From a bacterium (GTDB lineage Bacteria > Krumholzibacteriota > Krumholzibacteriia > Krumholzibacteriales > Krumholzibacteriaceae): DNA of 64,000 nt. The position numbers were made by a program, and so were the translations under genes. The notes under the pieces are model-generated. The model saw only the letters and a program-made list of their open reading frames with translations, made no database searches and had not been told where the DNA came from. Below, piece by piece: positions 5,663-61,162 of this stretch. The first letter of the stretch is position 1. Each line of letters starts with the position of its first letter. The DNA lies in contig CP070727.1 in the NCBI GenBank assembly GCA_020350885.1, forward strand, positions 2,037,163-2,101,162. The letters are read 5' to 3'.

Positions 5663-7483
5663 TCAATCCAACCAGATCGCAATTCGGTCACCGGGGTAGA
5701 GCTTATCGCGATTGATCCCTTCGTTCCAGGCAAGGATCCTGGCGATGCTTATGTTGTACCGCCTGCTGATCGAGCTCAGCGTCTCTCCCCGCCTGACAAT
5801 ATGCACAATCTTGTTTTTTTCCTGCATCGTGATGCCATCGATCACACCTTCAGGAGCGGGATCGGTGATTGCCCTGTCCGGGGGAACGTATATGACCAAA
5901 CGGTCGCCGGGATGGATCAGGGATGTGTAACGGAGGTTGTTCCATGCGCGCAGGCGGCTCAGTCGCACCTTGAACCGCTCGGCTATCTCGCTCAACGTGT
6001 CGTTGTCCCTGACGGTGTAGACGATCTTCCTGTAACCCGAGGGCGCCCGATACCGTTTCATGGTGATCTTGTCGGGAAGCTTGGGTGGTGTACGGTACCC
6101 CGGCTGGCTGGACGCCGTTGCAGCAGGTGTCGCATCCTTGACCGGGATCAGGAGTATCTTCCCCTCCCTGATCCGATGGACGTTTCTGATCCCGTTAATC
6201 CTCTTTATCTCGCTCACCGAGATCTCGTAACGGTCTGCGATACGGGAGAGTGCCTCGCCCCGCTTCACCCTGTGCTTGTGCCATGAGACACGTTCCCCGG
6301 GTGGGATTTCGGCAAGCCCCTCCAGACACCGTTCACCCGTACCCTCGGGGACTTTGAGCTCGATCACCATGCCGGGCGGCGTGGCCCAGCGCTTGAGCGC
6401 CGGATTCAAATCCTCGAGGGTCCGCAGGGTACACCCGGCCTTCTTGGCTATCAACCGCAGGTCGGTGGATTGTTCTATCGTAATAATATCGAACCGTATG
6501 GGCTCCACCGATGTTTTCCTGAAGCCGTACCGCGACGGCTCTCGCGCAATCGTCAGGGCCGCCATGAACTTCGGTACGAACCACTTTGTCTGGTTCGGTA
6601 AACGGAGCTTCCAGTAGTCGTCGGTCTTCTGGCGGGAAATCGCGTGCGCTACCCGGTACTCCCCTGCGTTGTACGAGGCGAGCGCGAGGGGCCACGAACC
6701 GAAGAGATCGTGAAGATGCTTGAGATAATGCGCGGCGGCATACGTGGATGCTATGATATCGCGCCGTTCGTCGATCCACCAGTTGATGCGCAATCCGAAG
6801 AGCCGACCGGTCCCGGCCATGAACTGCCATGGCCCGACCGCCTTCATTCGCGACCGGGCCCTCAGATTGAGCCCGCTCTCGATGACCGCCAGGTAGAGAA
6901 GATCCCGGGGAATCCCGACTTCTATCAGGATCGGTTCGATCAACTCTCGGTATTTCTCGGCACGGAGGAGCCAGCGGCGGAAGTTCCGCCGCCCCCTTCC
7001 CTGGAAATATTTTATCCAGTGTTTTGTCCGCCAGTTGAAGACGATCTCGATCTCGTCCTCGACGACATGATTCGCCGTAATAGAATCGAGTACGGCGGTG
7101 ATATGAAACCTCGAGTCACGCTCGAGCTCCTCGTACGATACCCGCTCGAGCAGGCATCGGGACCTGTCCTCGAGCGTTTCGAGAAACTCGCATACCGCCG
7201 GCTCGGGTACCGTCTCCTTCATCTCGTGAATCGTCTTGATAAGATCTTCGCTCAGAAAGAGGGAGGATTCTAGATCGCCGAAATAGAAGTATGAATAGGC
7301 GCGATCGAGCTTCTCCTGAATGATATGTAGTTGTGGATAAATAAGATACATCTCCTCCTCGTGATCGAAGTCGGATATCCCGACATGATCGGCTCCATCT
7401 GTGGTGCCCCGTTTCGGGACGCGGCAACCACAGGAGAGGAGGAGCGGAAGAAGGATAAGTACTATCACAGACCTGCTGCTCAT
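5663..7483 (-). CDS. mltD: Membrane-bound lytic murein transglycosylase D-like lipoprotein (SLT domain plus multiple LysM domains)
   Basis: Lipoprotein signal (LLLSCGC). SLT catalytic region (LAVIESGLNLRARSRMKAVGPWQFMAGTG, ASYNAGEYRV). Three C-terminal LysM-like repeats (e.g. HKHRVKRGEALSRIADRYEISVSEIKRINGI and HIVRRGETLSSISRRYNISIARILAWN). Confidence 0.8.
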   Translation of the reverse strand: MSSRSVIVLILLPLLLSCGCRVPKRGTTDGADHVGISDFDHEEEMYLIYPQLHIIQEKLDRAYSYFYFGDLESSLFLSEDLIKTIHEMKETVPEPAVCEFLETLEDRSRCLLERVSYEELERDSRFHITAVLDSITANHVVEDEIEIVFNWRTKHWIKYFQGRGRRNFRRWLLRAEKYRELIEPILIEVGIPRDLLYLAVIESGLNLRARSRMKAVGPWQFMAGTGRLFGLRINWWIDERRDIIASTYAAAHYLKHLHDLFGSWPLALASYNAGEYRVAHAISRQKTDDYWKLRLPNQTKWFVPKFMAALTIAREPSRYGFRKTSVEPIRFDIITIEQSTDLRLIAKKAGCTLRTLEDLNPALKRWATPPGMVIELKVPEGTGERCLEGLAEIPPGERVSWHKHRVKRGEALSRIADRYEISVSEIKRINGIRNVHRIREGKILLIPVKDATPAATASSQPGYRTPPKLPDKITMKRYRAPSGYRKIVYTVRDNDTLSEIAERFKVRLSRLRAWNNLRYTSLIHPGDRLVIYVPPDRAITDPAPEGVIDGITMQEKNKIVHIVRRGETLSSISRRYNISIARILAWNEGINRDKLYPGDRIAIWLD

Positions 7484-15870: not shown

Positions 15871-18078
15871 ATGGTATGGGCGATGTGCTATATGCTTCTC
15901 TATCTCATCTGCGTCGCTCCAGGTGCCGCTCCCGGAGCACACCCCACCAGTGTATCCGACCATATCTGGCGCGGGGAGTATACCCGTGCACTTGCGGCGA
16001 CGGAGATAGGGAAGTGCAGCGATCGGGCAGTATGGTACACACTGACCGGCGATCTGGATTCGGCCTCACGGCTTCTCGGCGATACCGAACATTCCATGAG
16101 GAGGGGATTGATCTCGTTCAAGAGCGGTCGCTTCGAAGATGCGATCAAGCTTCTCGAGATCCCAGCTCATAATGCATTCCTCGACAGCTATCGCCTGTTG
16201 TACCGGGCGAGAAGTCTCATGGAGATCGGGCGTTACGCCGATTCAATGCGTGACCTGGAAGCTCTTCTCGATACTACCTGTGAGCAGGCGGATATCATCC
16301 GGCACCCGATTATGGAACGGGCGGCAAACTGTCTGATCGAGGCAAGTATCCTCTCTGCCCGGACGGGCGGTATTTGGAATAATCACGTAATTACACGACA
16401 TGCCCTGACGGACAAATCGTTCTTTCTGCTCACCCGCCACGCAGCCGAAAACGGATCGTGGGATGCAGCCCGGGGATATCTCCTCGCGGGTATCGCGGCC
16501 GTCCCGGACACTGGCGCCGCAGCACCCTTCACCGATGCAGTCCGGGCGCTCGAAGAAAGGTTCAAATCGCTGGACAAATCCGAGCTAGTTGCGATTGCAC
16601 GATACGCCATTCGGATCGGTGCTCTAGAGGCGGCGGACATCGTCATCAAGCAGCTCACCGTGCTGTATTCGCAAACTCCCGAAAGCCGCTATCTCAAGGG
16701 AATGCGGCTGGCGGCCGCCGGAGAGCCCCGGAGGGCACTCGAACGGTTCAGTCGCATCTTCCGTTCGAAAGTCGCTCCGGTATCCCTCAAGAAAGAATCG
16801 CTGCTCCAGATCGCCGCAATGGAGTACAGGCTGAAACGATACCGCCGGGCGGGCGAGAGCTATTCACTATTCGGACGATACTACCCCGATGACCCGAGAA
16901 GCACCATGGCGCTGGATACGGCGGCGCGGATCGCGATCGCACGAAGAAGATGGCCGCAAGCCCTCTCGCTCTGGAGAGAGATCCGCCAACGGAATGTCTG
17001 GACTGCACGGTCGAATGAGGCGGCGTTGAGCGAGGCGGCCCTCCACTATAAACTCGGTCATCGACAACACGCATATCGTATCCTCTCTTTCCTTGCACCT
17101 CGCTGCGACGGCACGCTGCGGGCCGCCGCCCTGTACTGGCTTCAGCTCACATGCAGCGATCAGCAGAAGAGGAAGATCCACCGAGACGAGCTGCTACGCA
17201 CCTGCCCGCATTCCTTCTATGCATTCCTTCTCGAGCACGGTGAGGGGGGTCTCGTTCTCGATACACGGCAGGTGGAAACCGGGAAATACACGGAGTGCCT
17301 GAAACGCTTGGAAAAGATGGAGCGTCATGCATTCGAGTCGATCACGAACGATCCCGCAACAGATGACACACTGCGCAACCATCCTGCACACCTGGCGTTC
17401 GATTATTTTCTCCGGTACGGTTTCCTGGATGAAGCCGCCGAATGCGCCACATTTTTGAAAATCCTGTTCAAGCACGATTCCGGTCGTATGATGGCGTTAT
17501 ACCGTGACACTCGCTCACAGGGAGGTGTGGCCCTCGGCCTCACACTTCTGAACTCCGTGCCCCGGGAAACCGATGGGGGCGTGGATACGGGGACACTCCG
17601 ATACCCCGTGGCGTATTCCGGGATCATCGGTCCGTGTTCGGAGCAGAGGGGACTTCCACCCGATCTCATCCTCGCCGTTATCAGAGAAGAAAGTGCATTC
17701 GATTCCAAAGCGCTCTCCAGGGCCGGTGCACGGGGCCTGATGCAGCTCATGCCTGCAACGGGGCTCTGGATCGGGAGGAAGCTCGGTAAGGCGGAGCTCT
17801 CGACGGACGACCTCTTCTCCGTGGCCTTCAATATAGAAGCGGGCATGTGGTACCTCGGGCATCTTCTCAACCGATTCGATGGTTCGATTGTTGCAGCCCT
17901 TGCAGCGTATAATGCTGGAGCGTCCCGTATGTCCCGATGGCGGAAGAACTTCTGTCCCTCGGAGGATCCGCTCGTTGCCATAGAGATGATCGGTCCTCAA
18001 GAGACGCGCACGTACGTCCGCAGGGTTCTGGATAGTTACAGCGCCTACCGCATGATGGGGAGAGATCGGTGCGAATAA
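15871..18078 (+). CDS. slt: Soluble lytic murein transglycosylase-like protein (TPR/superhelical N-domain plus SLT domain)
   Basis: C-terminal SLT domain (EESAFDSKALSRAGARGLMQLMPATG, AAYNAGASR). Signal-like N-terminus MVWAMCYMLLYLICVAPGAAPGA. The track ORF begins at TTG 15814; I prefer ATG 15871. Confidence 0.75.
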   Translation: MVWAMCYMLLYLICVAPGAAPGAHPTSVSDHIWRGEYTRALAATEIGKCSDRAVWYTLTGDLDSASRLLGDTEHSMRRGLISFKSGRFEDAIKLLEIPAHNAFLDSYRLLYRARSLMEIGRYADSMRDLEALLDTTCEQADIIRHPIMERAANCLIEASILSARTGGIWNNHVITRHALTDKSFFLLTRHAAENGSWDAARGYLLAGIAAVPDTGAAAPFTDAVRALEERFKSLDKSELVAIARYAIRIGALEAADIVIKQLTVLYSQTPESRYLKGMRLAAAGEPRRALERFSRIFRSKVAPVSLKKESLLQIAAMEYRLKRYRRAGESYSLFGRYYPDDPRSTMALDTAARIAIARRRWPQALSLWREIRQRNVWTARSNEAALSEAALHYKLGHRQHAYRILSFLAPRCDGTLRAAALYWLQLTCSDQQKRKIHRDELLRTCPHSFYAFLLEHGEGGLVLDTRQVETGKYTECLKRLEKMERHAFESITNDPATDDTLRNHPAHLAFDYFLRYGFLDEAAECATFLKILFKHDSGRMMALYRDTRSQGGVALGLTLLNSVPRETDGGVDTGTLRYPVAYSGIIGPCSEQRGLPPDLILAVIREESAFDSKALSRAGARGLMQLMPATGLWIGRKLGKAELSTDDLFSVAFNIEAGMWYLGHLLNRFDGSIVAALAAYNAGASRMSRWRKNFCPSEDPLVAIEMIGPQETRTYVRRVLDSYSAYRMMGRDRCE

Positions 18079-21329: not shown

Positions 21330-23252
21330 ATGAAGAAAACAGCATTTGTATGTTACGGATCGGAAGGGGAGAAGGGATCCCTTGTCTATCACGAATTGCC
21401 GAGAAAGGATTTCGGCGAGGAGTTCTTTGTCTTCATGTCACCAGGGCGCCCTGAGCAGGAGCCGATACAGCGGATCCTGTACCGGCACGCCATATCGGCT
21501 TCAAGGCTCGGCCACCCTATCCATTTCTTTTCGAACTTCATAGATCATGTTAAAGAAACAGTACAACAGATTGATGATAAAGCAGATAAACTGATAGGTG
21601 TACTTGTTGTAATCATGATACGCCGGGGCCGTGAACTCTACCTCTTCCACACCAAGGACGCCGCCCTCCACCATTGGGACGCCGGGGCCGGAATCGAGGG
21701 TCCCCTCGGGGCCATCAAAGGTGTACGGGAGTTGCTACTCGTCAAACCAAAGGAGCAGGGCGACCTCTTCAGGCACGCGATCGAGGACGAATTTACCCTA
21801 CATTACCTTGTCGCACCGGAGGGGGAACACGCAATCGTCATTGCACCGTCTAAGGAATTCATCCAACGATATCACGGGGAACTCAAAAACAGCATCCTCT
21901 TTCCATCGTTTGAGGTTCCGTCGGGTCCTGGAATCGATCTGCATGTCGGCCGTTCCTTTCCCGTGCTGCACTGGAACACAAACGTTAAAACCGCAATCCC
22001 GGCCGTCAGGACAATCCGTGGACGACGGCTGCTGCGTATCCCGATACCGGCCTTCGTCGGCATCGTCACGGCTGTTGTAGCGGTCGTCTTGGTCTTCGGC
22101 CCCTTCAGGAAAGGACGGAACACCAAGGTCCCCGAGCAGCAAACACCGCTTCTGTCCGCGCAGGACGAGGGAAGCTCAACACCGGAGGTGACGGTGGATG
22201 AGGGGACCGGCACCGACGAGATACCGGTACCCGGCAGCGGGGAAACAGGCACAGCGGTAGATCCCACGGAGAAGCGTATACAACTCACCGAGGCGTGGAA
22301 AAAGAGCCTCACGGCGCCGGTAACGTCATCCCCTGCCTGTTATCGTGAATTGGTCTATTTCGGCTGCAGGGACAGCCATCTGTACGCCTTCACACCCGAC
22401 GGCCAGTTGAAGTGGAAGTACAAGTCGGGTGGTGGTATCGGTGCATCACCCTACTGCATGGACAACCGGGTGGTATGCGCGGATTACAAAGGAGACGTCT
22501 TCTGCCTCGATGCAGTCACCGGCCACAAGCTTTGGGTGTTCTCCGCCGGTTCGAAGATCGTGAGCTCGCCCCGTATCTACCGGAATCTCGTGATCGTCGG
22601 TACGATGGAAGGAAGGATCTTCGCCATCACGCTGAAAGACGGATCACTGCTGTGGAACCAGCGGATCGGGAATGCGATATGGGCAACCTCGTCGATCGGA
22701 ACGGACTATATCATCGCCGCCACCATGGACGGTTCGCTTATCCGGTTCGATCACGACGGAAACATCATCTGGAGGGTCAAACCGGGCGGCGGCATCCTGG
22801 CGAGCCCGCTGTGCCTCGACCGGGAAAACCTCGTCGTCTTCGGGACGAAGGACCGTTATATCTATGCCTACTCCCTCTCCAGGGGAGACCTGATGTGGCG
22901 GTTCGTAACACAGGGTGAGGTCAACGGCACACCGGTATCTGACGGCGAACGCATCCTCGTCGGTTCCGAAGACGGAAACCTCTACGCCTTGGCGAACACC
23001 GGCAGACTCCTCTGGAAACGGCACCTGGGCGGTGCCATTCTCTCGCGCCCTCTGGTGGTCGACGAGACGGTCTTTATCACCTCCTACGGTTCGCGCGTGG
23101 CCGCCCTCGAACGGAAGACCGGTGAGATCATCTCAGAGTATAAAACAACATCACCCGTGTACTCTTCCCCCGCACACGACGATGAACGCCTCTATTTCGG
23201 TTCGAACGGCAACATATTTTACGCCCTCAACCGGTTCAGTGACGGAACGTAG
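21330..23252 (+). CDS. Membrane protein: unknown N-terminal cytoplasmic domain, single TM, periplasmic PQQ-like beta-propeller
   Basis: About 235-aa N-terminal domain without a recognised motif, then a TM helix (IPIPAFVGIVTAVVAVVLVFGPF), then a linker. After the linker, 7-8 PQQ/BamB-like repeats (e.g. HLYAFTPDGQLKWKYKSGG, GDVFCLDAVTGHKLWVFSAG, GRIFAITLKDGSLLWNQ, NLYALANTGRLLWKRHLGG). ATG 21330 is preceded by gagggg. Confidence 0.6.
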   Translation: MKKTAFVCYGSEGEKGSLVYHELPRKDFGEEFFVFMSPGRPEQEPIQRILYRHAISASRLGHPIHFFSNFIDHVKETVQQIDDKADKLIGVLVVIMIRRGRELYLFHTKDAALHHWDAGAGIEGPLGAIKGVRELLLVKPKEQGDLFRHAIEDEFTLHYLVAPEGEHAIVIAPSKEFIQRYHGELKNSILFPSFEVPSGPGIDLHVGRSFPVLHWNTNVKTAIPAVRTIRGRRLLRIPIPAFVGIVTAVVAVVLVFGPFRKGRNTKVPEQQTPLLSAQDEGSSTPEVTVDEGTGTDEIPVPGSGETGTAVDPTEKRIQLTEAWKKSLTAPVTSSPACYRELVYFGCRDSHLYAFTPDGQLKWKYKSGGGIGASPYCMDNRVVCADYKGDVFCLDAVTGHKLWVFSAGSKIVSSPRIYRNLVIVGTMEGRIFAITLKDGSLLWNQRIGNAIWATSSIGTDYIIAATMDGSLIRFDHDGNIIWRVKPGGGILASPLCLDRENLVVFGTKDRYIYAYSLSRGDLMWRFVTQGEVNGTPVSDGERILVGSEDGNLYALANTGRLLWKRHLGGAILSRPLVVDETVFITSYGSRVAALERKTGEIISEYKTTSPVYSSPAHDDERLYFGSNGNIFYALNRFSDGT

Positions 23253-36253: not shown

Positions 36254-37321
36254 ATGAGACACTCAGCCGAACGTTTTCGGCCACTCGTTGTGCTTCTGGC
36301 TCTCGCAATTACCACGTGTGCCGTTATCGAGCCCCCCACCGGAGGACCCGAGGATACGGAGCCGCCGATCATCGTCGAATATTCTCCGCGACCCGATTCC
36401 ACCGGCGTCTCGAGAGAGACCTCGGTCCGGATCGCCTTCAGCGAAGATCTCGATAGCGAGAGTTTCAAGAACAGAGTCCGTTTCTACCCGCCGGTCGAGT
36501 TCGACCGTGTCACGGTAAAAGGAAACAGATTGGAGATCAGATTCCGGGAACTCCTTCCCGAAACCACGTTCTGCGTGCTACTGGCGGCCGGTTTCAAGGA
36601 CCACCACGGTGTCAGGAGCTCGAGAAACGAGCAATTCTATTTTGCAACATCTGATTCCATCGAGCGGGGACAGCTCTCGGGTCATATTCTCTTCAAGAGC
36701 AAGCTCGATTCCATCAGTGTCGTGAAGGCCTTCGAGATACGGGCCGATACGGCCATCAATGTCTTCAAGCAAGAGGAATCGAGGATTGCGTTCACCGAAC
36801 GGGACGGAAGCTTCCGTCTCCGCGCACTGCCGGCAGACAGCAGTCGTTACCTTCTCTGGGCCTTCAGGGATGAAACAGGTGATGGGAAATACACGAGCGG
36901 GAAGGATTTCTCGCTTCTCTTCGGGGACACCCTCCTTCTCACCACAGATAAAACCACGATCGACGGTCTCGTGATCAATGTGATCGATCCGAATGAGCCG
37001 GGATCGGTCCAGGGGCGCGTGATCAACGAGTCGGGTATCGACGAGCTTGCGATGATCCGGTTCGACCCGCTTCTGCCGGGTGAGCCCCCGCTCCTCGCCG
37101 TAGCGGATACCACGGGTCATTTCAAGCTCATAAAGGTCAGGCCCGGAGGCTATCTCTTTTCGGCTTTTCTCGATATCGCCCCTGACAGTGTGTGCGGGAG
37201 CTACCCCGACCCTTTGGATTCGACGGCAACACTTCAGGAGCCGTGCTTCGAGATGCCCGACACGCTTGTCATCGGGCCGGGGGAATCGAAGACGCTCGAG
37301 CCCGTACTATTACAAAGATGA
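36254..37321 (+). CDS. Putative lipoprotein with a Big_5-type Ig-like domain and a carboxypeptidase-regulatory-like beta-sandwich
   Basis: Signal peptide MRHSAERFRPLVVLLALAITTCA (possible lipobox). PPIIVEYSPRPDSTGVSRETSVRIAFSEDLDSESF resembles bacterial Ig-like (SbsA/Big_5) domains. GSVQGRVINESG resembles a CarbopepD_reg-like domain. Confidence 0.45.
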   Translation: MRHSAERFRPLVVLLALAITTCAVIEPPTGGPEDTEPPIIVEYSPRPDSTGVSRETSVRIAFSEDLDSESFKNRVRFYPPVEFDRVTVKGNRLEIRFRELLPETTFCVLLAAGFKDHHGVRSSRNEQFYFATSDSIERGQLSGHILFKSKLDSISVVKAFEIRADTAINVFKQEESRIAFTERDGSFRLRALPADSSRYLLWAFRDETGDGKYTSGKDFSLLFGDTLLLTTDKTTIDGLVINVIDPNEPGSVQGRVINESGIDELAMIRFDPLLPGEPPLLAVADTTGHFKLIKVRPGGYLFSAFLDIAPDSVCGSYPDPLDSTATLQEPCFEMPDTLVIGPGESKTLEPVLLQR

Positions 37322-37331
37322 GGTGAACGTG

Positions 37332-38156
37332 ATGGACGAGGTGGCGTTCGTCAAGATGCACGGGGCGGGAAACGACTTCATCATGGTGGAGGATCTCGCC
37401 GTCCGCTTCGATCCCGACCGGTCGATGATCGCCGCACTCTGCGCATCCCACCGGGGAATCGGTGCCGATGGATTGATCATCCTGCGGCCGAGTGACCGGG
37501 CGGCCTTTTCGATGAAATACTACAACAGCGACGGGGGGGAGGCCGAGCTCTGCGGGAATGGAGCCAGGTGCGTAGCCCTTCTTGCATACAGGCTCGGCAT
37601 CACCGGACGCTCAATGCAGTTCGAGGCGCGCTCGGGGCCCGTCAAAGCCGAGATCCTCGACGACGGTGTCAATGTGGATATCGGAAAGGTTCGAGACCTC
37701 AGGCTCGGGATCGACCTCGATATGCTTCCGTCCAAGATCCATACGGCGTTCGCCGGTGTACCCCATGCAGTCGTGCTGACGCAGAATACGAGGGATTATT
37801 CCTCCGAGGCGTTCGTCACATGGGCGCGGCCGGTGCGATCCCACGCCTCCTTCTCACCGGAAGGAGTCAACGTCAATCTCGTCGCCGTTATCGACCGCAA
37901 CAGACTCGCCTACCGCACCTATGAACGAGGCGTGGAGCGGGAAACCCTCGCCTGCGGGACCGGGGCCATCGCCTCCGCCGTCGTCACGTCGCACCTCGGC
38001 ATGACCGAATCGCCGGTATCATGTGAAACGGGGGGAGGCGATCTCCTTTCCGTCACCTTCGAAAAAACGAGTAGCGGCGCCGAGGGGTGCATGCTCAAGG
38101 GACCGGCCGAAGTCGCCTTCGAAGGGACCTTCCGGCAATCCGATTACCGGCCGTGA
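37332..38156 (+). CDS. dapF: Diaminopimelate epimerase
   Basis: FVKMHGAGNDFIMVED, NSDGGEAELCGNGARC and second active-site Cys region ERETLACGTGA. The track ORF was trimmed to ATG 37332. Confidence 0.9.
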   Translation: MDEVAFVKMHGAGNDFIMVEDLAVRFDPDRSMIAALCASHRGIGADGLIILRPSDRAAFSMKYYNSDGGEAELCGNGARCVALLAYRLGITGRSMQFEARSGPVKAEILDDGVNVDIGKVRDLRLGIDLDMLPSKIHTAFAGVPHAVVLTQNTRDYSSEAFVTWARPVRSHASFSPEGVNVNLVAVIDRNRLAYRTYERGVERETLACGTGAIASAVVTSHLGMTESPVSCETGGGDLLSVTFEKTSSGAEGCMLKGPAEVAFEGTFRQSDYRP

Positions 38157-38286
38157 CCGGACCGGCCGATCCGTGTAGCGGACAACCGGCGGGCACCACC
38201 GGACCAGAGGTCCCCCGTCACTTTTATAACTTGCTAAAAACCATGATCCTTGGCACATTACATATAGAGGTGAATGTAGTATCGTC

Positions 38287-41088
38287 ATGCGCTTTCCATT
38301 CAGGACAATCATCGCCCTCCTGCTCCTGCAACTGACCGTTCCCGCCTCCACCACGGCGCAGTATCCCTTCGGAAAGAATAAGATACAGTACGCCCCCAAG
38401 GACTGGAAAGTCATCGAGACCCCGCATACCGAGATCTTCTACTACCCGGAGGAGATCGCAATAGCCGAATTCGTCGCCGGCATCTGCGAAGACGTCTACT
38501 ACGAATATTCGGACTTCTACAAGCTGGAGTTCGAACACAAGATCCCGATCATCCTCTACGGAACACACCACGATTTCAAGGAGACAAACGTTATACCCTA
38601 CTTCATCTCGGAGGGTACCGGCGGTTTCACGGAGTTCATGAAGGGCCGTGTGGCCATACCGTTCATCGGCTCATACGGACAGTTCGAGGGTGTCTTCAGG
38701 CACGAGCTCGCACACGCATTCATGCTCGAGAAGCTCCGCATCGTCAACAAAAAGCACCGGAGCTACACTTACAGCCATCCGCCTCTCTGGTTCACAGAGG
38801 GACTGGCGGAGTATCTCGCCCATGGTGGTCCCGACAGCGAGGCACATATGTTCATGCGGGATGCGATCACGGGCGAGGCCTTCTTCCCCCTCACGGAACT
38901 GTACCGCATCGAGGGAACCTACCTGATGTACAAGGAGGGGGAAAGCGCACTGCACTACATCTCCATGCGCTTCGGGAGGGAATCGATACGCCTGATTCTG
39001 GAGAATTGGTGGAAGAGCGACAGCTTCGATGGAGTGCTCAAGAAGACGATCGGGATGGATGTGGCCGAACTGAACAATGACTGGCAGCAGTACCTGAAGA
39101 GACGCTACTTTCCGGCGATTCTCAATCGCAGGCGCATCGATGAGATCGCAGAACGCCTCTCGCCCAAGGAACGTTCGTTCGAGATGCATCCCGTCTGTAT
39201 CAGAAACGGCGACACCGAACGGGTCTTTTGCATCGGATTCGGACTCGGAAGCATCGATCTCTTCGAATTGAAAGAGGGGAAACGGGGGAGGCACCGGAGG
39301 GAGACCGTTATCAGGGGAGGACGATCTACCCGCTTTGAATCGATTCCAATTCTGAGAAGCCGGATATCAATCAAGGGCGACACGCTCGTCTTCGTGGCAA
39401 AAGTTGGCGAGCGGGACGCTATCTATCTGTATGACGCCACTGAGATGAAGGTACTCGACAGGATATCATTCAAGGGCGCACGGATCATGAGCTCGCCCTG
39501 CATCTCACACGATGGGCGTCACATAGCCTTCACTGCAATCGACGGCACGGGTAAATCGGATCTCTTTACCGGCGATCTCGCCACACGGACATTTCGAAGA
39601 CTCACAAACGATTATTACCACGATCTCCATCCCGACTGGCATCCTTCTAAAGATCTCCTCGTTTTCAGCTCGGATCGCTGCCAGGACGGGCTCGACGGTA
39701 AATACGCCCTTTACACATTCGATGTCGAAACTTCCCGGCTCGCTCCGATCACCGATGGAAAGTACCACGACACCGATCCCCGCTGGCTTCCGGACGGTGA
39801 TGGTGTCATCTTTTCATCAGACCGCAGCGGCACCTACGATATATACACCCTTCGTGATGCACGGGTGATACGCCAGACGAACGTGCTGGGCGGTGCGTTC
39901 AATCCATACCCGTGCAGCGGTGGAACCCGGTTTCTCATGGCCGCCTACATCGGGGGAACGTACCGGATATTCCGCGCGCCACTCAAGGACGATGGAGAAA
40001 CGAGACCCCTGTCGTTCACGAGTGTTACCGCCCCGCCATGGACGCCGCACACGCCGGACAGCATATTAAATTTCAAAAAGAAGGATTACCGTCTCCGGTT
40101 CGGCCTCGATTTCATCGGAGCCGCCTTTGCGGTCGATCCGGATTTCGGATACATGGGCAACGGTGCACAGCTCTTCCTCACCGATCTGCTGGGAAACCAC
40201 CAGTTGATGATTCTCTTCGGCAGCGCTTCCGACGACTTCGACGACTTCTGGCGCAATGTCAACGTCGCAGTGACATACGTAAACCAGTCAAGCCGCCTGA
40301 ACTACGCCGTCGGTGCATTCCATCTGGCGACATATATGCGCTCTTATATCGAATCGCTCAGGTTCGAACGCCGTTATGGAGTAATCGGAGGGATCAGCTA
40401 TCCATTCTCGAAATTCACCCGTGTCGATCTCTCGACGGTCTTCAAGGGTATGGAGCGTGACGACGACATAACGTATCTGGGGTTGCAGGAGGGGAGCAGC
40501 TGGCTCATCTCGAACTACATTTCATTCACCACCGATAATATCGTCTGGTACATCGGCGGGCCGCTCACCGGCCACCGGCTGAATATAGCACTCGGGAATA
40601 CCCTGGATCTAAAAGGAACGGATTACGAGAGCACAACGCTACATGTCGATGTCCGTAATTACATCAATATCAGCAAGCGGATTGTATTCGCTCAGCGGTT
40701 TGTGAGCAGGAACGCATGGGGAAGCGACCTCCAGCTCTTCTACCTCGGCGGTGCCTGGGATTTGCGCGGGTACGACTTCAGAGAATTTTTCGGCAAGCGG
40801 ATCATTCTCATCAATAACGAGCTACGGTTTCCGCTGATAGACCGTTTCCTGCTCAGATTCCCTTTCGGACATATCGATTTCCCCTTCTTCAGAGGTTCCC
40901 TCTTCTTCGATATCGGAAGGGTGGACGGATTCATACACGATACGGGATGGCTGGGAAGTTTCGGAACCGGAGTGGAGATGAATCTAGGCTACCTGCCCGT
41001 TGTGCGGATAAACTTCAGCAGGCTGACCGATTTCAAAGAGATCGACGATGATACCCGTGTCGATTTCTTTATCGGTTTCAACTATTAG
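38287..41088 (+). CDS. Secreted multidomain protein: gluzincin-like metallopeptidase domain, TolB/PD40 beta-propeller, C-terminal Omp85-family (surface-antigen D15-like) beta-barrel
   Basis: Signal peptide (IIALLLLQLTVPASTTA). HExxH plus downstream Glu (FRHELAHAFML...WFTEGLAEYLAHGG). PD40-like repeats (SHDGRHIAFTAIDGTGKSDLF, DWHPSKDLLVFSSDRCQDG, DPRWLPDGDGVIFSSDRSGTYDIYTL). C-terminal ~330 aa with Omp85 hallmarks (YLGGAWDLRGYDFREFFG...LRFPL...LFFDIGRV...SFGTGVEMNLGYLPVVRINFS) and terminal FFIGFNY. Confidence 0.6.
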   Translation: MRFPFRTIIALLLLQLTVPASTTAQYPFGKNKIQYAPKDWKVIETPHTEIFYYPEEIAIAEFVAGICEDVYYEYSDFYKLEFEHKIPIILYGTHHDFKETNVIPYFISEGTGGFTEFMKGRVAIPFIGSYGQFEGVFRHELAHAFMLEKLRIVNKKHRSYTYSHPPLWFTEGLAEYLAHGGPDSEAHMFMRDAITGEAFFPLTELYRIEGTYLMYKEGESALHYISMRFGRESIRLILENWWKSDSFDGVLKKTIGMDVAELNNDWQQYLKRRYFPAILNRRRIDEIAERLSPKERSFEMHPVCIRNGDTERVFCIGFGLGSIDLFELKEGKRGRHRRETVIRGGRSTRFESIPILRSRISIKGDTLVFVAKVGERDAIYLYDATEMKVLDRISFKGARIMSSPCISHDGRHIAFTAIDGTGKSDLFTGDLATRTFRRLTNDYYHDLHPDWHPSKDLLVFSSDRCQDGLDGKYALYTFDVETSRLAPITDGKYHDTDPRWLPDGDGVIFSSDRSGTYDIYTLRDARVIRQTNVLGGAFNPYPCSGGTRFLMAAYIGGTYRIFRAPLKDDGETRPLSFTSVTAPPWTPHTPDSILNFKKKDYRLRFGLDFIGAAFAVDPDFGYMGNGAQLFLTDLLGNHQLMILFGSASDDFDDFWRNVNVAVTYVNQSSRLNYAVGAFHLATYMRSYIESLRFERRYGVIGGISYPFSKFTRVDLSTVFKGMERDDDITYLGLQEGSSWLISNYISFTTDNIVWYIGGPLTGHRLNIALGNTLDLKGTDYESTTLHVDVRNYINISKRIVFAQRFVSRNAWGSDLQLFYLGGAWDLRGYDFREFFGKRIILINNELRFPLIDRFLLRFPFGHIDFPFFRGSLFFDIGRVDGFIHDTGWLGSFGTGVEMNLGYLPVVRINFSRLTDFKEIDDDTRVDFFIGFNY

Positions 41089-41098
41089 TGAATGCCGT

Positions 41099-42952
41099 TC
41101 AGTTCCCTTTCGTCCCTTTCTCGAATACCTCGATTGCAACGTTGTACCTGTTGAAGGGAGCGCTGATCTGCACACCGTTGATATGGGGGAGGAGCTGCCG
41201 GAGCAGCTCGATCGCGATATCTATACCCTCGCGCATCGCTTCCTCACCGCTTCCGGCCTCACGCATCCGCTGCATGATGCCGTCCGGTACCGTAACACCG
41301 GGAAGCTCATTGTTCATGAACTCCGCGTTCTTGTAACTCGTGAGCGGCCAGATCCCGGCGATGATCGGGATCCTCATCGTATCGATCGCTTCGAGGAACC
41401 GTTCGAACTGAGCAATATCGAAGATTGGCTGCGTCACGGCGAACTCTGCACCGGCATCGACCTTCCAATAAAACCTATGCATCTCTTCCTCGAAGTTGAC
41501 TGCACCGGGATTGACACCGACACCGATATGGAAGGCAGTTGGAACACCGAGATGTCTTCCGCCGATATCCCGGCCGTAGTTGAGTTCGTGCACAACATTG
41601 GTGAGCCCGATCGAGTCGATATCGAATACCGCCGTTGCATCCGGATAATCGCCTGTTCTGATGGGATCTCCCGTTATGATCAGGATGTTGCGAAGTCCGA
41701 GTGCGTGCGCGCCGAGAAGATCGGATTGCATTCCCAGGATGTTCCTATCCCTACAGCAGTAATGGAGCATCGTCTCGACACCGATCAGCTGTTCGATCAG
41801 CACCGCCAGCGCGAGAGGGCTCATACGCGATGTGGCACGGGGGCTGTCGGGTATGTTGATCGCATCGACACCCGCCTCCGAGAGATGCCGCGCGGCCTCG
41901 AGCACCTTACTCGGATCGCACCCGCGGGGGGGAACGAGCTCGACGACGCAGACCGGTTCCCCTTCACAGATGCGCGAGGCGAGCCTCGACTTGTCACGAG
42001 TCTCGACCGCCTCGGCCTCCACGACGCTCTTCTCGGGTTCGGATTTTACGGGAGCAGGCTCCCGGACCGGACGGACGGTGCGAAGCGCATCCCGGATAGC
42101 CCTGATGTGCGCCGGTGTCGTTCCGCAGCATCCACCGATCACCCTGGCACCCACCTGTACGAACCGCCTGGCGTACTCGGCGAGATACTCGGGGGAGACG
42201 AGATAGATATTCCTGCCCTCGATATTCTGCGGTATGCCCGCATTCGGCTGTACGGAGATATACCCGTCGACGGCCCGTGCCATCTTCTCCACCGCCTCGA
42301 GCATCACTTTCGGTCCCACGGAGCAATTCACTCCGATCACATCAACGTTCCATTGAATGAGCGTCCGGGCGAATCCATCGGGTTCCGTGCCGTACAGCCC
42401 TAGTCCGTCGTTCTGGAGAGTCATCTGTGCGACGATCGGCAGGTCGCATACCGTCCGTACGCCCCTGATCGCCTGATGGATTTCGTTGAGATCTGCAAAC
42501 GTTTCGAGGACGAAGATATCGACGCCGCCATCATTCAGCGCCTGTGCCTGCTCCCGGAAGGCTTCTGCGGCCTCCTCGTTCGATGTCGGTCCCCATGGCT
42601 CGATCTTGATGCCGAGCGGACCGATCGCCCCAGCGACAAGCACACCGGTGCCAGCTGCCTTTCTGGCGAGCTCGGCACCCTGCCTGTTGATATCGGCTAG
42701 CTTACCATCCAGACCGAAAAGTTTGAGCTTGTGCCTGTTTGCTCCGAACGTGTTTGTCTCGATGACGTCGGCGCCCGCTTCTACGTATTCACGGTGTATC
42801 CCCTCAACGAGCGATGGATTCGAGAGATTCGCCTCGTCAAAGCACATATTGATAAAGATGCCCCGCTCATAGAGCATGGTGCCCATTGCCCCGTCGAAGA
42901 GTACGACACCCTCGTCAAGCATACTTAAAAAATCGTTGGACATCGCAACCAT
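41099..42952 (-). CDS. yitJ: Bifunctional homocysteine S-methyltransferase / 5,10-methylenetetrahydrofolate reductase (YitJ-type)
   Basis: N-terminal Hcy-binding domain (VLFDGAMGTMLYERG, IETNTFGAN, GGCCGTTPAHIRA). C-terminal MTHFR domain (INIPDSPRATSRMSPLALA, MQSDLLGAHALGLRNILIITGD). Confidence 0.8.
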   Translation of the reverse strand: MVAMSNDFLSMLDEGVVLFDGAMGTMLYERGIFINMCFDEANLSNPSLVEGIHREYVEAGADVIETNTFGANRHKLKLFGLDGKLADINRQGAELARKAAGTGVLVAGAIGPLGIKIEPWGPTSNEEAAEAFREQAQALNDGGVDIFVLETFADLNEIHQAIRGVRTVCDLPIVAQMTLQNDGLGLYGTEPDGFARTLIQWNVDVIGVNCSVGPKVMLEAVEKMARAVDGYISVQPNAGIPQNIEGRNIYLVSPEYLAEYARRFVQVGARVIGGCCGTTPAHIRAIRDALRTVRPVREPAPVKSEPEKSVVEAEAVETRDKSRLASRICEGEPVCVVELVPPRGCDPSKVLEAARHLSEAGVDAINIPDSPRATSRMSPLALAVLIEQLIGVETMLHYCCRDRNILGMQSDLLGAHALGLRNILIITGDPIRTGDYPDATAVFDIDSIGLTNVVHELNYGRDIGGRHLGVPTAFHIGVGVNPGAVNFEEEMHRFYWKVDAGAEFAVTQPIFDIAQFERFLEAIDTMRIPIIAGIWPLTSYKNAEFMNNELPGVTVPDGIMQRMREAGSGEEAMREGIDIAIELLRQLLPHINGVQISAPFNRYNVAIEVFEKGTKGN

Positions 42953-58962: not shown

Positions 58963-60126
58963 ATGGACGGTATCAATATCAAGCTCATTCTGCTGCTGAT
59001 CCTCGCAGCGGCCGTAATACTGCTCGTGGTCATCCTGCTCTTCCAACGGAAGCGCAGACGCAAACCGCACCGGAGCACGTATATCGATGCGCTCTATGCC
59101 CTCATCGACGGCCGGAAGGACGATGCACTCAGACTCCTCACCATGGCGGTCAAGAACGGTGAAGGGGACGTGGACGCGTATCTCCAGCTCGGAAACTTGC
59201 TGAGAGAGAAAAAGATGCCGGAAAAGGCATTTCAGATCCACAAGAGCCTCATGGTTCGTCGGGATCTCGGCTTCGAGGAAGAAAAGGCGATTCAGATGGC
59301 ACTGGCCGAAGACCTCGCCGATCTCGGCAAGATCGATAGATCGATACAGGCCCTCGAATCCGTGTACCAGAAGAGGAAGGATCCCGATATCGTACTCTCA
59401 CTGCATAAGCTCTACCATCGCAACGGTGCGTACGAGAAGGCATATGCAATGTTGAAAGACCTCTCCAGGCTCGGCCATTCCATAGGCAAATCGGACCGTG
59501 CCGCCTACCTGGCAACCGCCTCCGATACGCTCATACGACACCGACGGATCGAAGAAGCAAAGAAATACCTGGACAGGGCCCGCAAGGAAGACGGCAATTC
59601 GGTCCCGGCTCTCTACCTCACCGCACAGCTCGCGATGCAGGAGAACGATCTCGCGACGGCATCAAAGATGTGGGAACGCCTCCTTCAGAGCGAGATCAAT
59701 TACTTCGGTGATGTGGCACCGCTCCTGGAGAAGACACTCTACGAGTCGGGCAAGTTCCAGCACCTCGAGAAGGTACTGCTCGAACTCCTGCGACGCTACC
59801 CGCGCCGACCTGGGCTTCTGAATGCGCTCGCCTCGTTCTACGAGAAGAAGGGAGAACTGGACAAGGCAATCAGCATTCTCGAGAACGAACGCACGTCGAT
59901 CCAGGAGGACCCCGTCGTATCCGCCAGACTTGCAACACTATACCTCGAAACCGAGAAACCGCAATACGCCCGCCGTATCCTGGAGGAGATCGATCTGAGG
60001 GCCAGGAGGAATATGGCGTACACATGCGACGTGTGCGGGAACCGCTCAGATATCCCCCTTTTGTACTGTGAACGCTGCTTCAACTTCAACACCTTCACGA
60101 GAGCGCATGAGACGGCCGCCGTGTAA
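58963..60126 (+). CDS. lapB: LapB/YciM-like protein (N-terminal TM, TPR repeats, C-terminal rubredoxin-like metal-binding motif)
   Basis: N-terminal TM helix, TPR repeats (GNLLREKKMPEKAFQIHKSL...), C-terminal CDVCGNRSDIPLLYCERCFNFNTF (Cx2C-x10-Cx2C). Confidence 0.65.
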   Translation: MDGINIKLILLLILAAAVILLVVILLFQRKRRRKPHRSTYIDALYALIDGRKDDALRLLTMAVKNGEGDVDAYLQLGNLLREKKMPEKAFQIHKSLMVRRDLGFEEEKAIQMALAEDLADLGKIDRSIQALESVYQKRKDPDIVLSLHKLYHRNGAYEKAYAMLKDLSRLGHSIGKSDRAAYLATASDTLIRHRRIEEAKKYLDRARKEDGNSVPALYLTAQLAMQENDLATASKMWERLLQSEINYFGDVAPLLEKTLYESGKFQHLEKVLLELLRRYPRRPGLLNALASFYEKKGELDKAISILENERTSIQEDPVVSARLATLYLETEKPQYARRILEEIDLRARRNMAYTCDVCGNRSDIPLLYCERCFNFNTFTRAHETAAV

Positions 60127-60139
60127 TCTGCTCACAACC

Positions 60140-61162
60140 GTGACCATTATCGTCATACTGATGATGTGTGTGCGCCCCACTGCGGCCAGCCTCAGATCTA
60201 TCAGACGGATGGTCAGAGCAAAGGAGTATGCACGCGCCAGGCGCGCCCTCGAAGAGGAGCTCCCAAAGCTCTCGGGCAAGTCGCGCAGCGAGGGAATGCT
60301 GCTCCTCGCACGGCTTACAAAAGATGTATCGGAAGCCCAGCGGATATACCGCCGTATCATCGAGTCCGGAAGGGCGCGGGACGCCCTGAGGGCGCGGATC
60401 GAGCTCGCAAAGATCTTCTATGCCACCGGCGAATACGAGCGGGCAGCCCGCATACTATCGACACTGGCCGGCAAGGGTTACCGGGGTGATCGATGGGAAG
60501 CGATCTTTCTTCGTGCACTCTGCTGGAAGAAGCTCGGCGATACCTCGAGGGCCCGAACGGATCTGGAACTCATCGACAGGGGTGATTTTCTCTACTGGAG
60601 TTACATGACACTCGCCGAGATCGATATCGTGGAGGGTAAAATCGAGGACGCCATCGAACGGTACGAAATGATTGCAGGGGGACACTCTAATCCAATCGCC
60701 GGATTCAAACTCGGTGAATGCTACGAGATCCAGGGGGACCGGGAAAGGGCCCTCAAGGAATATCGGACGCTGGCCTCGAACTTTCCGAAATCGCTCGAAG
60801 CTCCAAAGGCGCGGGAAAAGATCCAGATGATACAATCGGCGGGGAGGATCCGCCGTGACCGAAGACCGTCGCGAGGAGGTGAGAAGGAGGAAGAAGCAGG
60901 AGAGGAACCACGAATCGACGGAGCCGTACCGTTCGCCTTCACGATCCAACTGGGTGCGTTCAGCGAGAGGGAGAATGCGATCCGGATGGCCAAGGAAATC
61001 GAAGAGATCACCGATGATGTTCGCGTAGAGCGCATCGAAAGCGACGGCCGGATCTGGCACCGGGTCCGCGTCGGTCGATACCGGAACAGAGAAGAAGCCG
61101 AGCGGTACGCTGAATTCCTCGAACGCAAGACCGGTTACACCGGCAAAATCCTCCCTCGATGA
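60140..61162 (+). CDS. TPR-repeat protein with a C-terminal SPOR (peptidoglycan-binding) domain
   Basis: TPR repeats. C-terminal SPOR-like domain (FTIQLGAFSERENAIRMAKEIEEITDDVRVERIESDGRIWHRVRVGRYRNREEAERYAEFL). GTG 60140 gives a hydrophobic N-terminus. The track ORF 60068 would overlap lapB. Confidence 0.6.
   Translation: MTIIVILMMCVRPTAASLRSIRRMVRAKEYARARRALEEELPKLSGKSRSEGMLLLARLTKDVSEAQRIYRRIIESGRARDALRARIELAKIFYATGEYERAARILSTLAGKGYRGDRWEAIFLRALCWKKLGDTSRARTDLELIDRGDFLYWSYMTLAEIDIVEGKIEDAIERYEMIAGGHSNPIAGFKLGECYEIQGDRERALKEYRTLASNFPKSLEAPKAREKIQMIQSAGRIRRDRRPSRGGEKEEEAGEEPRIDGAVPFAFTIQLGAFSERENAIRMAKEIEEITDDVRVERIESDGRIWHRVRVGRYRNREEAERYAEFLERKTGYTGKILPR

Follow-up and report, generated by a model that had tools for sequence, protein, structure and literature searches.

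A POTRA-less Omp85 protein with a zinc peptidase domain and a TolB-type propeller encoded in a genome of the Krumholzibacteriaceae

The Omp85/TpsB superfamily was divided by Heinz and Lithgow (2014; PMC4104836) into ten subfamilies, including one termed "WD40-like" or "WD40-Omp85". A gene for a protein of this kind is located in the stretch of DNA analyzed here, positions 2,037,163 to 2,101,162 of contig CP070727.1 (assembly GCA_020350885.1), which originates from a bacterium of the family Krumholzibacteriaceae. Within this stretch of 64,000 nucleotides, hereafter referred to as the window, the gene occupies positions 38287..41088 of the forward strand. It encodes a protein of 933 residues, in which a zinc peptidase domain and a TolB-type propeller precede an Omp85 barrel.

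The main text of the 2014 study ascribed an N-terminal TolB-like propeller to the WD40-like group and suggested a BamA–BamB fusion; the WD40 part alone was discussed, and no tests were made. In its Table S2, the profiles of this group consist of PF01103 and one to five copies of PF07676, without POTRA. In Table S3, the members are given with hits to a BamA/TamA barrel and to TolB as well as with a "best aminopeptidase hit" (1Z5H, 4KXD, 4FGM, 3QNF, and 4AR1). These members come from Caldithrix, Rhodothermus, Chloroherpeton, Cloacimonas, Sorangium, Anaeromyxobacter, and others; the carriers within the Fibrobacteres–Chlorobi–Bacteroidetes (FCB) group include Caldithrix, Rhodothermus, Chloroherpeton, Cloacimonas, and Echinicola. 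The set was drawn from the UniProt genomes of that date (PMC4104836). A 2024 paper on Leptospira Omp85 proteins (PMC11358297) sums this up by speaking of Omp85 subfamilies that have "divergent WD40 and peptidase domains". The literature found on this exact architecture comprises Heinz and Lithgow (2014) and papers citing it; a paper on the machinery for beta-barrel assembly (BAM) of Bacteroidota contains no mention of such a protein.

Rhodothermus marinus and Caldithrix abyssi have four WD40-like Omp85 entries each in Tables S1 and S3, the entry D0MCT8 shows tricorn protease 1K32 in the peptidase column, and the "Metallo" group of the same catalog carries PF00149 (PMC4104836). The WD40-like subfamily probably holds paralogues with differing protease modules. 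PF00149 is known as a phosphoesterase family and not as a protease family.

Two further systems are relevant for comparison. In PlpD, an enzyme domain is likewise located N-terminal to an Omp85 barrel, and this domain is exclusively periplasmic (PMC11116518). Since the enzyme domain of PlpD stays in the periplasm, the Omp85 scaffold can be reused as an anchor for a periplasmic enzyme. In Escherichia coli, the active site of the zinc protease BepA lies beneath the BamA barrel and cuts misfolding outer-membrane proteins (PMC13478230). Our favored interpretation of the Krumholzibacteriaceae protein, which we rate slightly above an even chance, is that it is an outer-membrane-anchored, periplasm-facing zinc metalloprotease with the barrel as anchor and the propeller as gate or recruiter, which would act near the membrane by cutting unfolded envelope proteins or peptides.

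Domain architecture and placement in the Omp85 superfamily

A signal peptide, a thermolysin-like zinc peptidase domain, a six-bladed TolB-type PD40 propeller, and a C-terminal Omp85 barrel lacking POTRA domains follow one another in the protein. The features are listed below by window coordinates; conservation refers to an alignment of 52 sequences, 35–69% identical to the query protein.

38287..41088 (+): whole gene for the peptidase/PD40 propeller/Omp85 barrel protein, 933 residues; open reading frame (ORF), Pfam, >1000 homologues
38287..38358 (+): signal peptide, residues 1–24, MRFPFRTIIALLLLQLTVPASTTA; read from the sequence, conservation low (0.34) with a sharp rise at Q25
38359..38406 (+): conserved mature N terminus, residues 25–40, QYPFGKNKIQYAPKDW; Q25, G29, N31, and K32 invariant
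38407..39156 (+): thermolysin-like gluzincin peptidase domain, residues 41–290; PF13485, Foldseek matches to M1, M9, and M61, weak ColG profile alignment
38620..38634 (+): GGFTE motif upstream of the zinc site, residues 112–116; G113, F114, and T115 invariant
38701..38715 (+): HELAH zinc-binding/catalytic motif, residues 139–143; H139, E140, and H143 invariant (52/52)
38788..38814 (+): WFTEGLAEY, residues 168–176; W168, E171, G172, A174, and E175 invariant; aligns with WFDEGTAEF of collagenase G
38929..38943 (+): YKEGE, residues 215–219; Y215, K216, G218, and E219 invariant
39169..40011 (+): six-bladed PD40/TolB-type beta-propeller, residues 295–575
40012..40074 (+): short linker without POTRA, residues 576–596; mean conservation 0.29, no helices in 288–655, no PF07244
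40075..41085 (+): Omp85-type beta-barrel, residues 597–933, with a DSSP count of 16 strands
40741..40782 (+): loop 6 with YLGGAWDLRGYDFR, residues 819–832, Omp85 (V/I)RG(F/Y)-type motif; aligns to GGGNSLRGYD of Fusobacterium nucleatum BamA
40903..40917 (+): FFDIG, residues 873–877, strand-13 (F/G)xDxG motif, conserved in the 52 sequences
41059..41085 (+): C-terminal strand VDFFIGFNY with an aromatic end, of the outer-membrane-protein beta-signal type; F928, G930, and N932 near-invariant

Judged against the curated Pfam cut-offs, the protein matches Peptidase_MA_2 (PF13485) at residues 86–271 (E = 2.8e-9; 37.5 bits vs. a cut-off of 32.4), PD40 (PF07676; E = 4e-12; 46.2 bits vs. 20.9), and the Omp85 family PF01103 at residues 695–931 (E = 1.1e-7; 32.1 bits vs. 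24). The POTRA family PF07244, which was sought down to E ≤ 1, gave no match. The patatin family PF01734 and the M48, TPR, and M1 families were also without a Pfam match, and none of the known peptidoglycan-peptidase families was matched in Pfam or NCBIfam. The NCBIfam matches were all partial, namely to TolB, to the flagellinolysin HExxH model, and to a generic Omp85 model; the TolB model TIGR02800 reached 96.1 bits vs. its equivalog cut-off of 343.15, with the propeller part alone being aligned. Because these matches are partial, the NCBI pipeline is without a specific model for this protein.

A full-length AlphaFold2 model was built on an alignment of 24 sequences, with a predicted local distance difference test score (pLDDT) of 76.3 and a predicted template-modeling (TM) score of 0.74. 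It consists, in this order, of a signal-peptide helix, a mixed alpha/beta and then helical domain (residues 41–290), the propeller (299–574), a 21-residue linker, and the barrel (597–931). The propeller is modeled with 24 strands arranged as six four-stranded blades. Residues 288–655 are free of helices, and the model has no beta-alpha-alpha-beta-beta unit between propeller and barrel. For the barrel, the DSSP string, from which the strands were counted in place of coordinates, gives the expected number of 16, provided that residues 597–608 are taken as strand 1. The 25-residue loop between strands 11 and 12 (813–837), which holds WDLRGYDF, sits at the same place as loop 6 of BamA.

When the N-domain was modeled separately, Foldseek returned matches at a TM score of about 0.5 to the catalytic domains of several zinc peptidases. 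These include the M1 aminopeptidases IRAP, ERAP1, APN, LTA4H, and F3 (1z1w), also 4fgm, as well as the M9 collagenases ColG, ColT, and ColH and an M61 enzyme. In the profile comparison with PDB, the N-domain matched ColG alone and weakly (E = 0.14), with the alignment at RHExxH and WFxEGxAE, so that the domain could be placed only through the fold search. The profile made from the barrel alone matched BamA of F. nucleatum (E = 7e-4) in an alignment that spans the GGxxxLRGYD loop. The best fold matches of the barrel were BamA, TamA, and Sam50. TolB was the top fold match of the propeller, for which Foldseek also gave S9 peptidases and tricorn (1K32). These predicted folds agree with the Pfam domain calls.

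The original prediction, made from the letters of the window, had described an Omp85 barrel preceded by a gluzincin-type site and a PD40/TolB-type propeller in place of POTRA domains. Every motif quoted in it was located in the protein: HELAH (139–143) with the downstream Glu in WFTEGLAEY (168–176), LRGYDFREFFG (826–836), LRFPL (846–850), LFFDIGRV (872–879), SFGTGVEMNLGY (891–902), and FFIGFNY (927–933). The barrel was recovered by PF01103, by AlphaFold2, and by the fold searches; the gluzincin-type site by PF13485, by the invariance of HELAH and E171, and by a modeled fold like that of M1, M9, and M61 catalytic domains; and the propeller by PD40 and its modeled blades. The replacement of POTRA domains is borne out by the lack of PF07244 and by the helix-free linker of the model.

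The peptidase domain shows the features of gluzincins (clan MA, PF13485), i.e. HExxH with a downstream Glu and, as predicted, a thermolysin-like fold. E171 is the probable third zinc ligand, and Y215 of YKEGE is a candidate for the transition-state tyrosine by analogy with M1 enzymes. M1 aminopeptidases possess the GxMEN exopeptidase motif, an N-terminal beta-sandwich, and a C-terminal helical domain. The catalytic domain described here comprises about 250 residues only and has GGFT(E/D) instead of GxMEN, which sets it apart from the M1 aminopeptidases. GGFTE resembles GxMEN in its position relative to HExxH, though the sequence differs, and may play a comparable role. The signal peptide is probably cleaved before Q25. 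A Gln at the N terminus after cleavage recalls the pyroglutamate "Q-rule" of Bacteroidota. The pattern Q-[YF]-x-F-G-[KQR]-N-K of the mature N terminus is near-invariant and is also seen in relatives of about 30% identity, in distant long forms, and in a barrel-less homologue from Salinibacter.

The barrel displays the characteristic features of the Omp85 superfamily, namely a PF01103-type fold of 16 predicted strands, LRGY (826–829) in loop 6, and FFDIG (873–877). The loop-6 (V/I)RG(F/Y) and strand-13 (F/G)xDxG motifs were established from structures of BamA, TamA, and FhaC. The POTRA domains typical of classical Omp85 proteins are absent. BamA has five POTRA domains and associates with BamD. 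The protein examined here differs from BamA, TamA, and Sam50 by the lack of POTRA, by its weak sequence similarity to them, and by the enzyme and propeller present instead.

The view that this architecture cannot be placed in a described family did not hold, as the WD40-like Omp85 subfamily was named in PMC4104836 and restated in PMC11358297. Of the outcomes that the original prediction had set against itself, an already named family thus essentially exists, as an entry in a bioinformatic catalog, and a missing PF01103 match was not what we found. The protein belongs to the WD40-like/peptidase branch of Omp85 proteins, whose published exemplars include H1XQ58, D0MEQ5, and B0VIY2; this assignment is based on domain profile and fold matches. 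It shares with this subfamily the domain order, the PF01103 barrel, PF07676 repeats with TolB as the best match, the lack of POTRA, and an N-terminal aminopeptidase-like gluzincin domain, which matches the same enzyme families as listed in Table S3. It differs from the 2014 set in being carried by a Krumholzibacteriota-like metagenome-assembled genome (MAG) and in representing a family that is very large in candidate phyla. New beyond the 2014 catalog are the motif invariance, the topology suggested by conservation, the coupled BamB-like gene in one lineage, the barrel-less plasmid form, and the family size.

Other known systems share parts of this plan. PlpD, of type Vd, combines a patatin lipase domain, POTRA, and an Omp85 barrel and forms homodimers; our protein has none of the first two and carries a zinc peptidase and a propeller. 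The proposed working of BepA with BAM, a zinc protease under an Omp85 barrel that cuts misfolding outer-membrane proteins, is alike, which is a resemblance and not a membership: BepA, a soluble protein of the M48/TPR kind, exists apart from BAM and associates with it reversibly, whereas the protease here is of the PF13485 family, with an M1/M9-like predicted fold, and is fused. TolB has an N-terminal TolA-binding domain, which our protein lacks. Tricorn and the S9 DPP-IV/acylaminoacyl peptidases also combine a PD40-type propeller and a peptidase in one chain. They are, however, soluble serine peptidases whose catalytic domain either lies C-terminal to the propeller or surrounds it, while in our case a gluzincin is located ahead of the propeller and a membrane barrel forms the end of the chain.

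Conservation and spread of the family

One search yielded more than 1000 homologues. The best 120 were mostly of full length (930–950 residues), were 42–69% identical, and came from MAGs of Krumholzibacteriota, Latescibacterota, and Eisenbacteria; they are annotated as "PD40 domain-containing protein", "hypothetical", or "BamA/TamA family outer membrane protein". A scan with one genome per species revealed a relative in 277 genomes, including bins labeled as Zixibacteria and Ignavibacteria. In an exhaustive profile search of 50%-identity representatives, the best 150 were nearly all of full length (900–1170 residues), and 4047 representatives, with single-domain relatives such as TolB among them, reached E ≤ 1e-30. 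In one search, 6838 proteins were obtained at E ≤ 1e-20. Relatives of full length number in the thousands and occur in Krumholzibacteriota, Latescibacterota, Zixibacteria, Eisenbacteria, and other groups. A gene-calling or fusion artifact was rejected in view of the full-length homologues of 930–950 residues in several phyla.

In loop 6, R827 was present in 50 of the 52 aligned sequences, G828 in all 52, and Y829 in 49. The corresponding numbers for strand 13 were 51 (F873), 52 (D875), and 47 (G877), and the C-terminal residue was F or Y in 52/52. The zinc-site, loop-6, and strand-13 motifs vary little or not at all; strong selection thus acts on the enzyme as well as on the Omp85-specific lock. 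The invariance of H139, E140, H143, E171, Y215, K216, G218, and E219 argues for an active enzyme, and the conserved RGY of loop 6, FxDxG of strand 13, and aromatic C terminus suggest a functional Omp85 barrel.

Two deviating forms were observed. The long forms P0185, P0193, P0211, and P0236 (1095–1170 residues) contain an acidic low-complexity linker of 150–250 residues between propeller and barrel, which would give the protease module a reach far from the barrel. The homologue search started from the distant long form P0185 retrieved MAG proteins only, and the names found by cluster look-up were limited to "hypothetical", "Tol biopolymer transport system component", and Candidatus Electryonea. 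The second form, of 633 residues, consists of the peptidase and the PD40 propeller and lacks the barrel. It is encoded on plasmid pSR116 of Salinibacter ruber (NZ_CP030365.1, 81325-83226; locus L081, 4935-6836), shares 30.6% identity over residues 16–591, is annotated as "basic secretory protein-like protein", and retains the zinc motifs and an N-terminal AQYFGKNK motif. It is followed by a gene for an S10 serine carboxypeptidase, by which the next ORF was rejected as a split-off barrel; genes for a zinc transporter and a TonB-dependent receptor are located upstream. Because this barrel-less form exists, the peptidase–propeller pair can be regarded as a module in its own right.

Predicted membrane topology and gene neighborhood

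With residues 597–608 as strand 1, short turns of 2–7 residues alternate with longer loops of 7–25 residues in the AlphaFold2 model. The predicted surface loops L2, L3, L4, L5, and L7 have the lowest conservation in the barrel (0.27–0.43), and the values of the predicted periplasmic turns T1, T3, T6, and T7 (0.75–0.86) are among the highest. The mean conservation of loop 6 is 0.71. In known Omp85 proteins, this loop folds into the lumen, and in an even-stranded barrel both ends are at the periplasmic side. The segments of the peptidase (0.53–0.77) and propeller blades 2–5 (0.49–0.57) exceed loops L2–L5 and L7 in conservation, and the values for blades 1 and 6 (0.38 and 0.42) do not rise above those of the same loops. 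This pattern of loops and turns would place the barrel start, the linker, the propeller, and the peptidase on the periplasmic side. Loop 1 has a DPDFG...GNG pattern with three invariant residues, is modeled with low confidence, and is unlike loops 2–5 and 7; it may form a plug or a part of a functional seam instead of an exposed loop.

The opposite orientation would imply a surface-displayed protease of a type V-like kind, in which the barrel exports its own peptidase–propeller passenger to feed on external proteins. Such export was proposed in the original PlpD model and as an alternative for enzyme–Omp85 fusions by Heinz and Lithgow (PMC4104836). The acidic linkers of the long forms resemble the stalks of surface-displayed proteins, and the location of the Salinibacter barrel-less form, with a carboxypeptidase gene next to it and a gene for a TonB-dependent receptor nearby, hints at processing of nutrient peptides. 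However, the enzyme domain of PlpD has since been shown to be periplasmic (PMC11116518), and our protein has neither POTRA nor a recognition element of the two-partner-secretion type. In addition, conservation extends to the loop-6/strand-13 lock, by which Omp85 barrels are closed, export would require a folded module of about 550 residues to cross the membrane, and the peptidase and most of the propeller are far more conserved than the predicted surface loops. We therefore consider surface display unlikely. The self-exporting surface protease envisaged in the original prediction is disfavored by the predicted topology and by the PlpD precedent; the self-anchoring protein, which had been offered as well, fits the evidence.

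The ORF at 38287..41088 (+) starts with ATG and comprises 933 codons. It is preceded by dapF (PF01678), whose stop at 38156 leaves a gap of 130 bp, and is convergent with a gene for a homocysteine S-methyltransferase/methylenetetrahydrofolate reductase fusion (41099..42952, –), which is 10 bp away. Both the gap after dapF and the convergent neighbor were thus correctly anticipated. The accompanying idea of a single-gene unit is plausible for this genome, given the gap and the convergent neighbor, but does not apply in general, as 20 loci of the Zixibacteria/Ignavibacteria type carry a BamB-like gene on the same strand. A scan of positions 37900-41400 revealed no terminator-like site and one promoter-like site, which is intragenic; this count is below chance expectation. 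Further copies of the gene were absent from the window.

Gene order was compared over 80 related loci. In the Krumholzibacteriota/Latescibacterota type, the order is argF, a Big_5 lipoprotein gene, dapF, the gene in question, (a methyltransferase gene), and proS. The Big_5, dapF, and proS genes are each present in 43–47 of the 80 loci, and argF in 27; our gene follows dapF in 47 loci, and the Big_5 lipoprotein occurs in 43. This context is a housekeeping neighborhood. In the window, the Big_5 lipoprotein (36254-37321, +), which has an ITTC lipobox and a Big_5 Ig-like domain, is encoded two genes upstream, before dapF, and is without an NCBIfam match. Cell-envelope genes are numerous in the window. 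Two genes for SLT lytic transglycosylases and one for a TPR/SPOR-domain protein were found at 5663-7483 (–), 15871-18078 (+), and 60107-61162 (+); one of the transglycosylases has three LysM repeats, the other TPR. A secreted protein with an FlgD_ig domain and a type IX secretion C-terminal sorting domain (Por_Secre_tail, 26.4 bits, cut-off 27) is encoded at 36-1799 (+), which is consistent with an organism of the FCB group.

Part of this context could be taken to indicate a role in the cell wall or in the Tol-Pal system, with the propeller binding a Pal-like lipoprotein or peptidoglycan and the peptidase trimming stem peptides or lipoprotein–wall links. TolB proteins are the best matches of the propeller, dapF, a gene of meso-diaminopimelate synthesis, precedes the gene in 47/80 loci, and the SLT and SPOR-domain genes lie in the same window. 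The TolB model, however, scores 96 bits vs. 343, and our protein has no TolA-binding N-domain. PD40 propellers are also widespread in peptidases that have nothing to do with Tol-Pal, as seen from the S9 and tricorn matches, and no known peptidoglycan-peptidase family was matched in Pfam or NCBIfam. The dapF synteny, which also holds argF and proS and is lost in Zixibacteria, looks like inherited gene order. A role of this kind is, in our opinion, very unlikely.

A different neighborhood was found in 20 loci labeled as Zixibacteria or Ignavibacteria. Namely, a gene for a PQQ-type propeller lipoprotein is located directly downstream on the same strand (loci L053-L078; e.g. L065, 8745-9902, and L062, 8793-9929). 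In 9 of the 20 loci, its start overlaps the end of the peptidase–barrel gene by 13 bp, and most of these proteins carry a lipobox. Their best NCBIfam match is BamB (117–146 bits vs. a cut-off of 285). The pairing is kept while the peptidase–barrel proteins diverge to 47% identity. This suggests a link to an outer-membrane partner and counts in favor of a protease held at the outer membrane. A HEAT-repeat gene occurs upstream in 16 loci with these labels; its product looks cytoplasmic, lacks a signal peptide, and was set aside as a partner and counted as synteny. In the window itself, the C-terminal half of a 640-residue ORF (21330-23252, +), which is not adjacent to our gene, is a BamB-like PQQ propeller (TIGR03300, 155.6 bits vs. 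285). The N-terminal 300 residues showed no family match and no obvious signal peptide. This ORF may be the counterpart of the BamB-like lipoprotein of Zixibacteria.

The coupled BamB-like gene can also be read in terms of an insertase of outer-membrane proteins, i.e. a BAM-like module with a BamA/TamA-type barrel, a propeller replacing a BamB-like scaffold, and a peptidase with an accessory function in editing or maturation. The barrel has retained the motifs in loop 6 and strand 13 that BamA needs to function, BamA, TamA, and Sam50 are the best barrel matches, and conservation is unusually high across strand 1, loop 1, and strand 2, as would fit a functioning lateral seam. Yet the protein is devoid of POTRA, which BamA and TamA use for substrate receipt and partner binding, and its propeller is of the six-bladed PD40/TolB type and not of the eight-bladed PQQ type of BamB. 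Moreover, the sequence similarity of the barrel to BamA is marginal (32 bits for PF01103; E = 7e-4 for the PDB profile), and the neighboring lipoproteins remain far under the BamB equivalog cut-off. An insertase, which the original prediction had offered as a further possibility, therefore appears improbable to us.

Proposed function and significance

Under the favored interpretation as a membrane-anchored protease, the protein would be exported via Sec, after which the C-terminal 16-stranded barrel would insert in the outer membrane as an anchor and might also serve as a docking site for unfolded beta-barrel substrates. The 21-residue linker would hold the propeller and the zinc peptidase directly below the barrel, in the periplasm; this location is suggested by the conservation pattern and the model. 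The peptidase, judged by HExxH and Glu, should be catalytically competent and is expected to act proteolytically. The propeller may act as in tricorn and S9 peptidases, where PD40 propellers limit or recruit what comes to the active site, or may bind a partner. The likeliest task would be envelope proteostasis, with unfolded or mis-assembled outer-membrane or periplasmic proteins as putative substrates cleaved close to the membrane. The protein could then be viewed as a covalently fused counterpart of the BepA zinc site beneath the BamA barrel in E. coli.

Several points weigh against this interpretation. The periplasmic placement draws on the general topology of Omp85 proteins and on conservation patterns. 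The conservation of loop 1 (residues 609–626; window 40111-40164) is 0.58, above the norm of the surface loops, which a simple topology fails to explain. The invariant segments 25–37 and 95–115, part of the active-site surroundings, were modeled with pLDDT <50. The role in quality control is proposed by analogy. The adjacency of the BamB-like gene is limited to one lineage, of the Zixibacteria type, and could be inherited synteny, and the neighborhood in the window (dapF, amino-acid metabolism, and proS) says nothing on function. Finally, no experiment on any member of the family was found in the searched literature.

A more ambitious possibility, which we regard as doubtful, is that of a single-chain quality-control machine for outer-membrane proteins in a part of the FCB-related radiation. 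The barrel seam would recognize stalled or misfolded barrels and hand them to the fused protease, with the propeller and an operon-encoded BamB-like lipoprotein as a platform for substrates or partners. If this were true, a single polypeptide would combine jobs that are done separately by BamA, BamB, and BepA in E. coli.

To our knowledge, every studied Omp85 protein except PlpD inserts or translocates other proteins. The family described here is a second large case in which an Omp85 barrel has apparently been put to a new use, namely to keep an enzyme at the outer membrane. It combines invariant catalytic residues with a housekeeping context in several candidate phyla, but annotation pipelines give it no name of its own. 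Knowledge of the membrane side and of the substrates would reveal how these poorly known bacteria maintain their envelope and would also test the idea of an Omp85 barrel as a substrate sensor for a protease.

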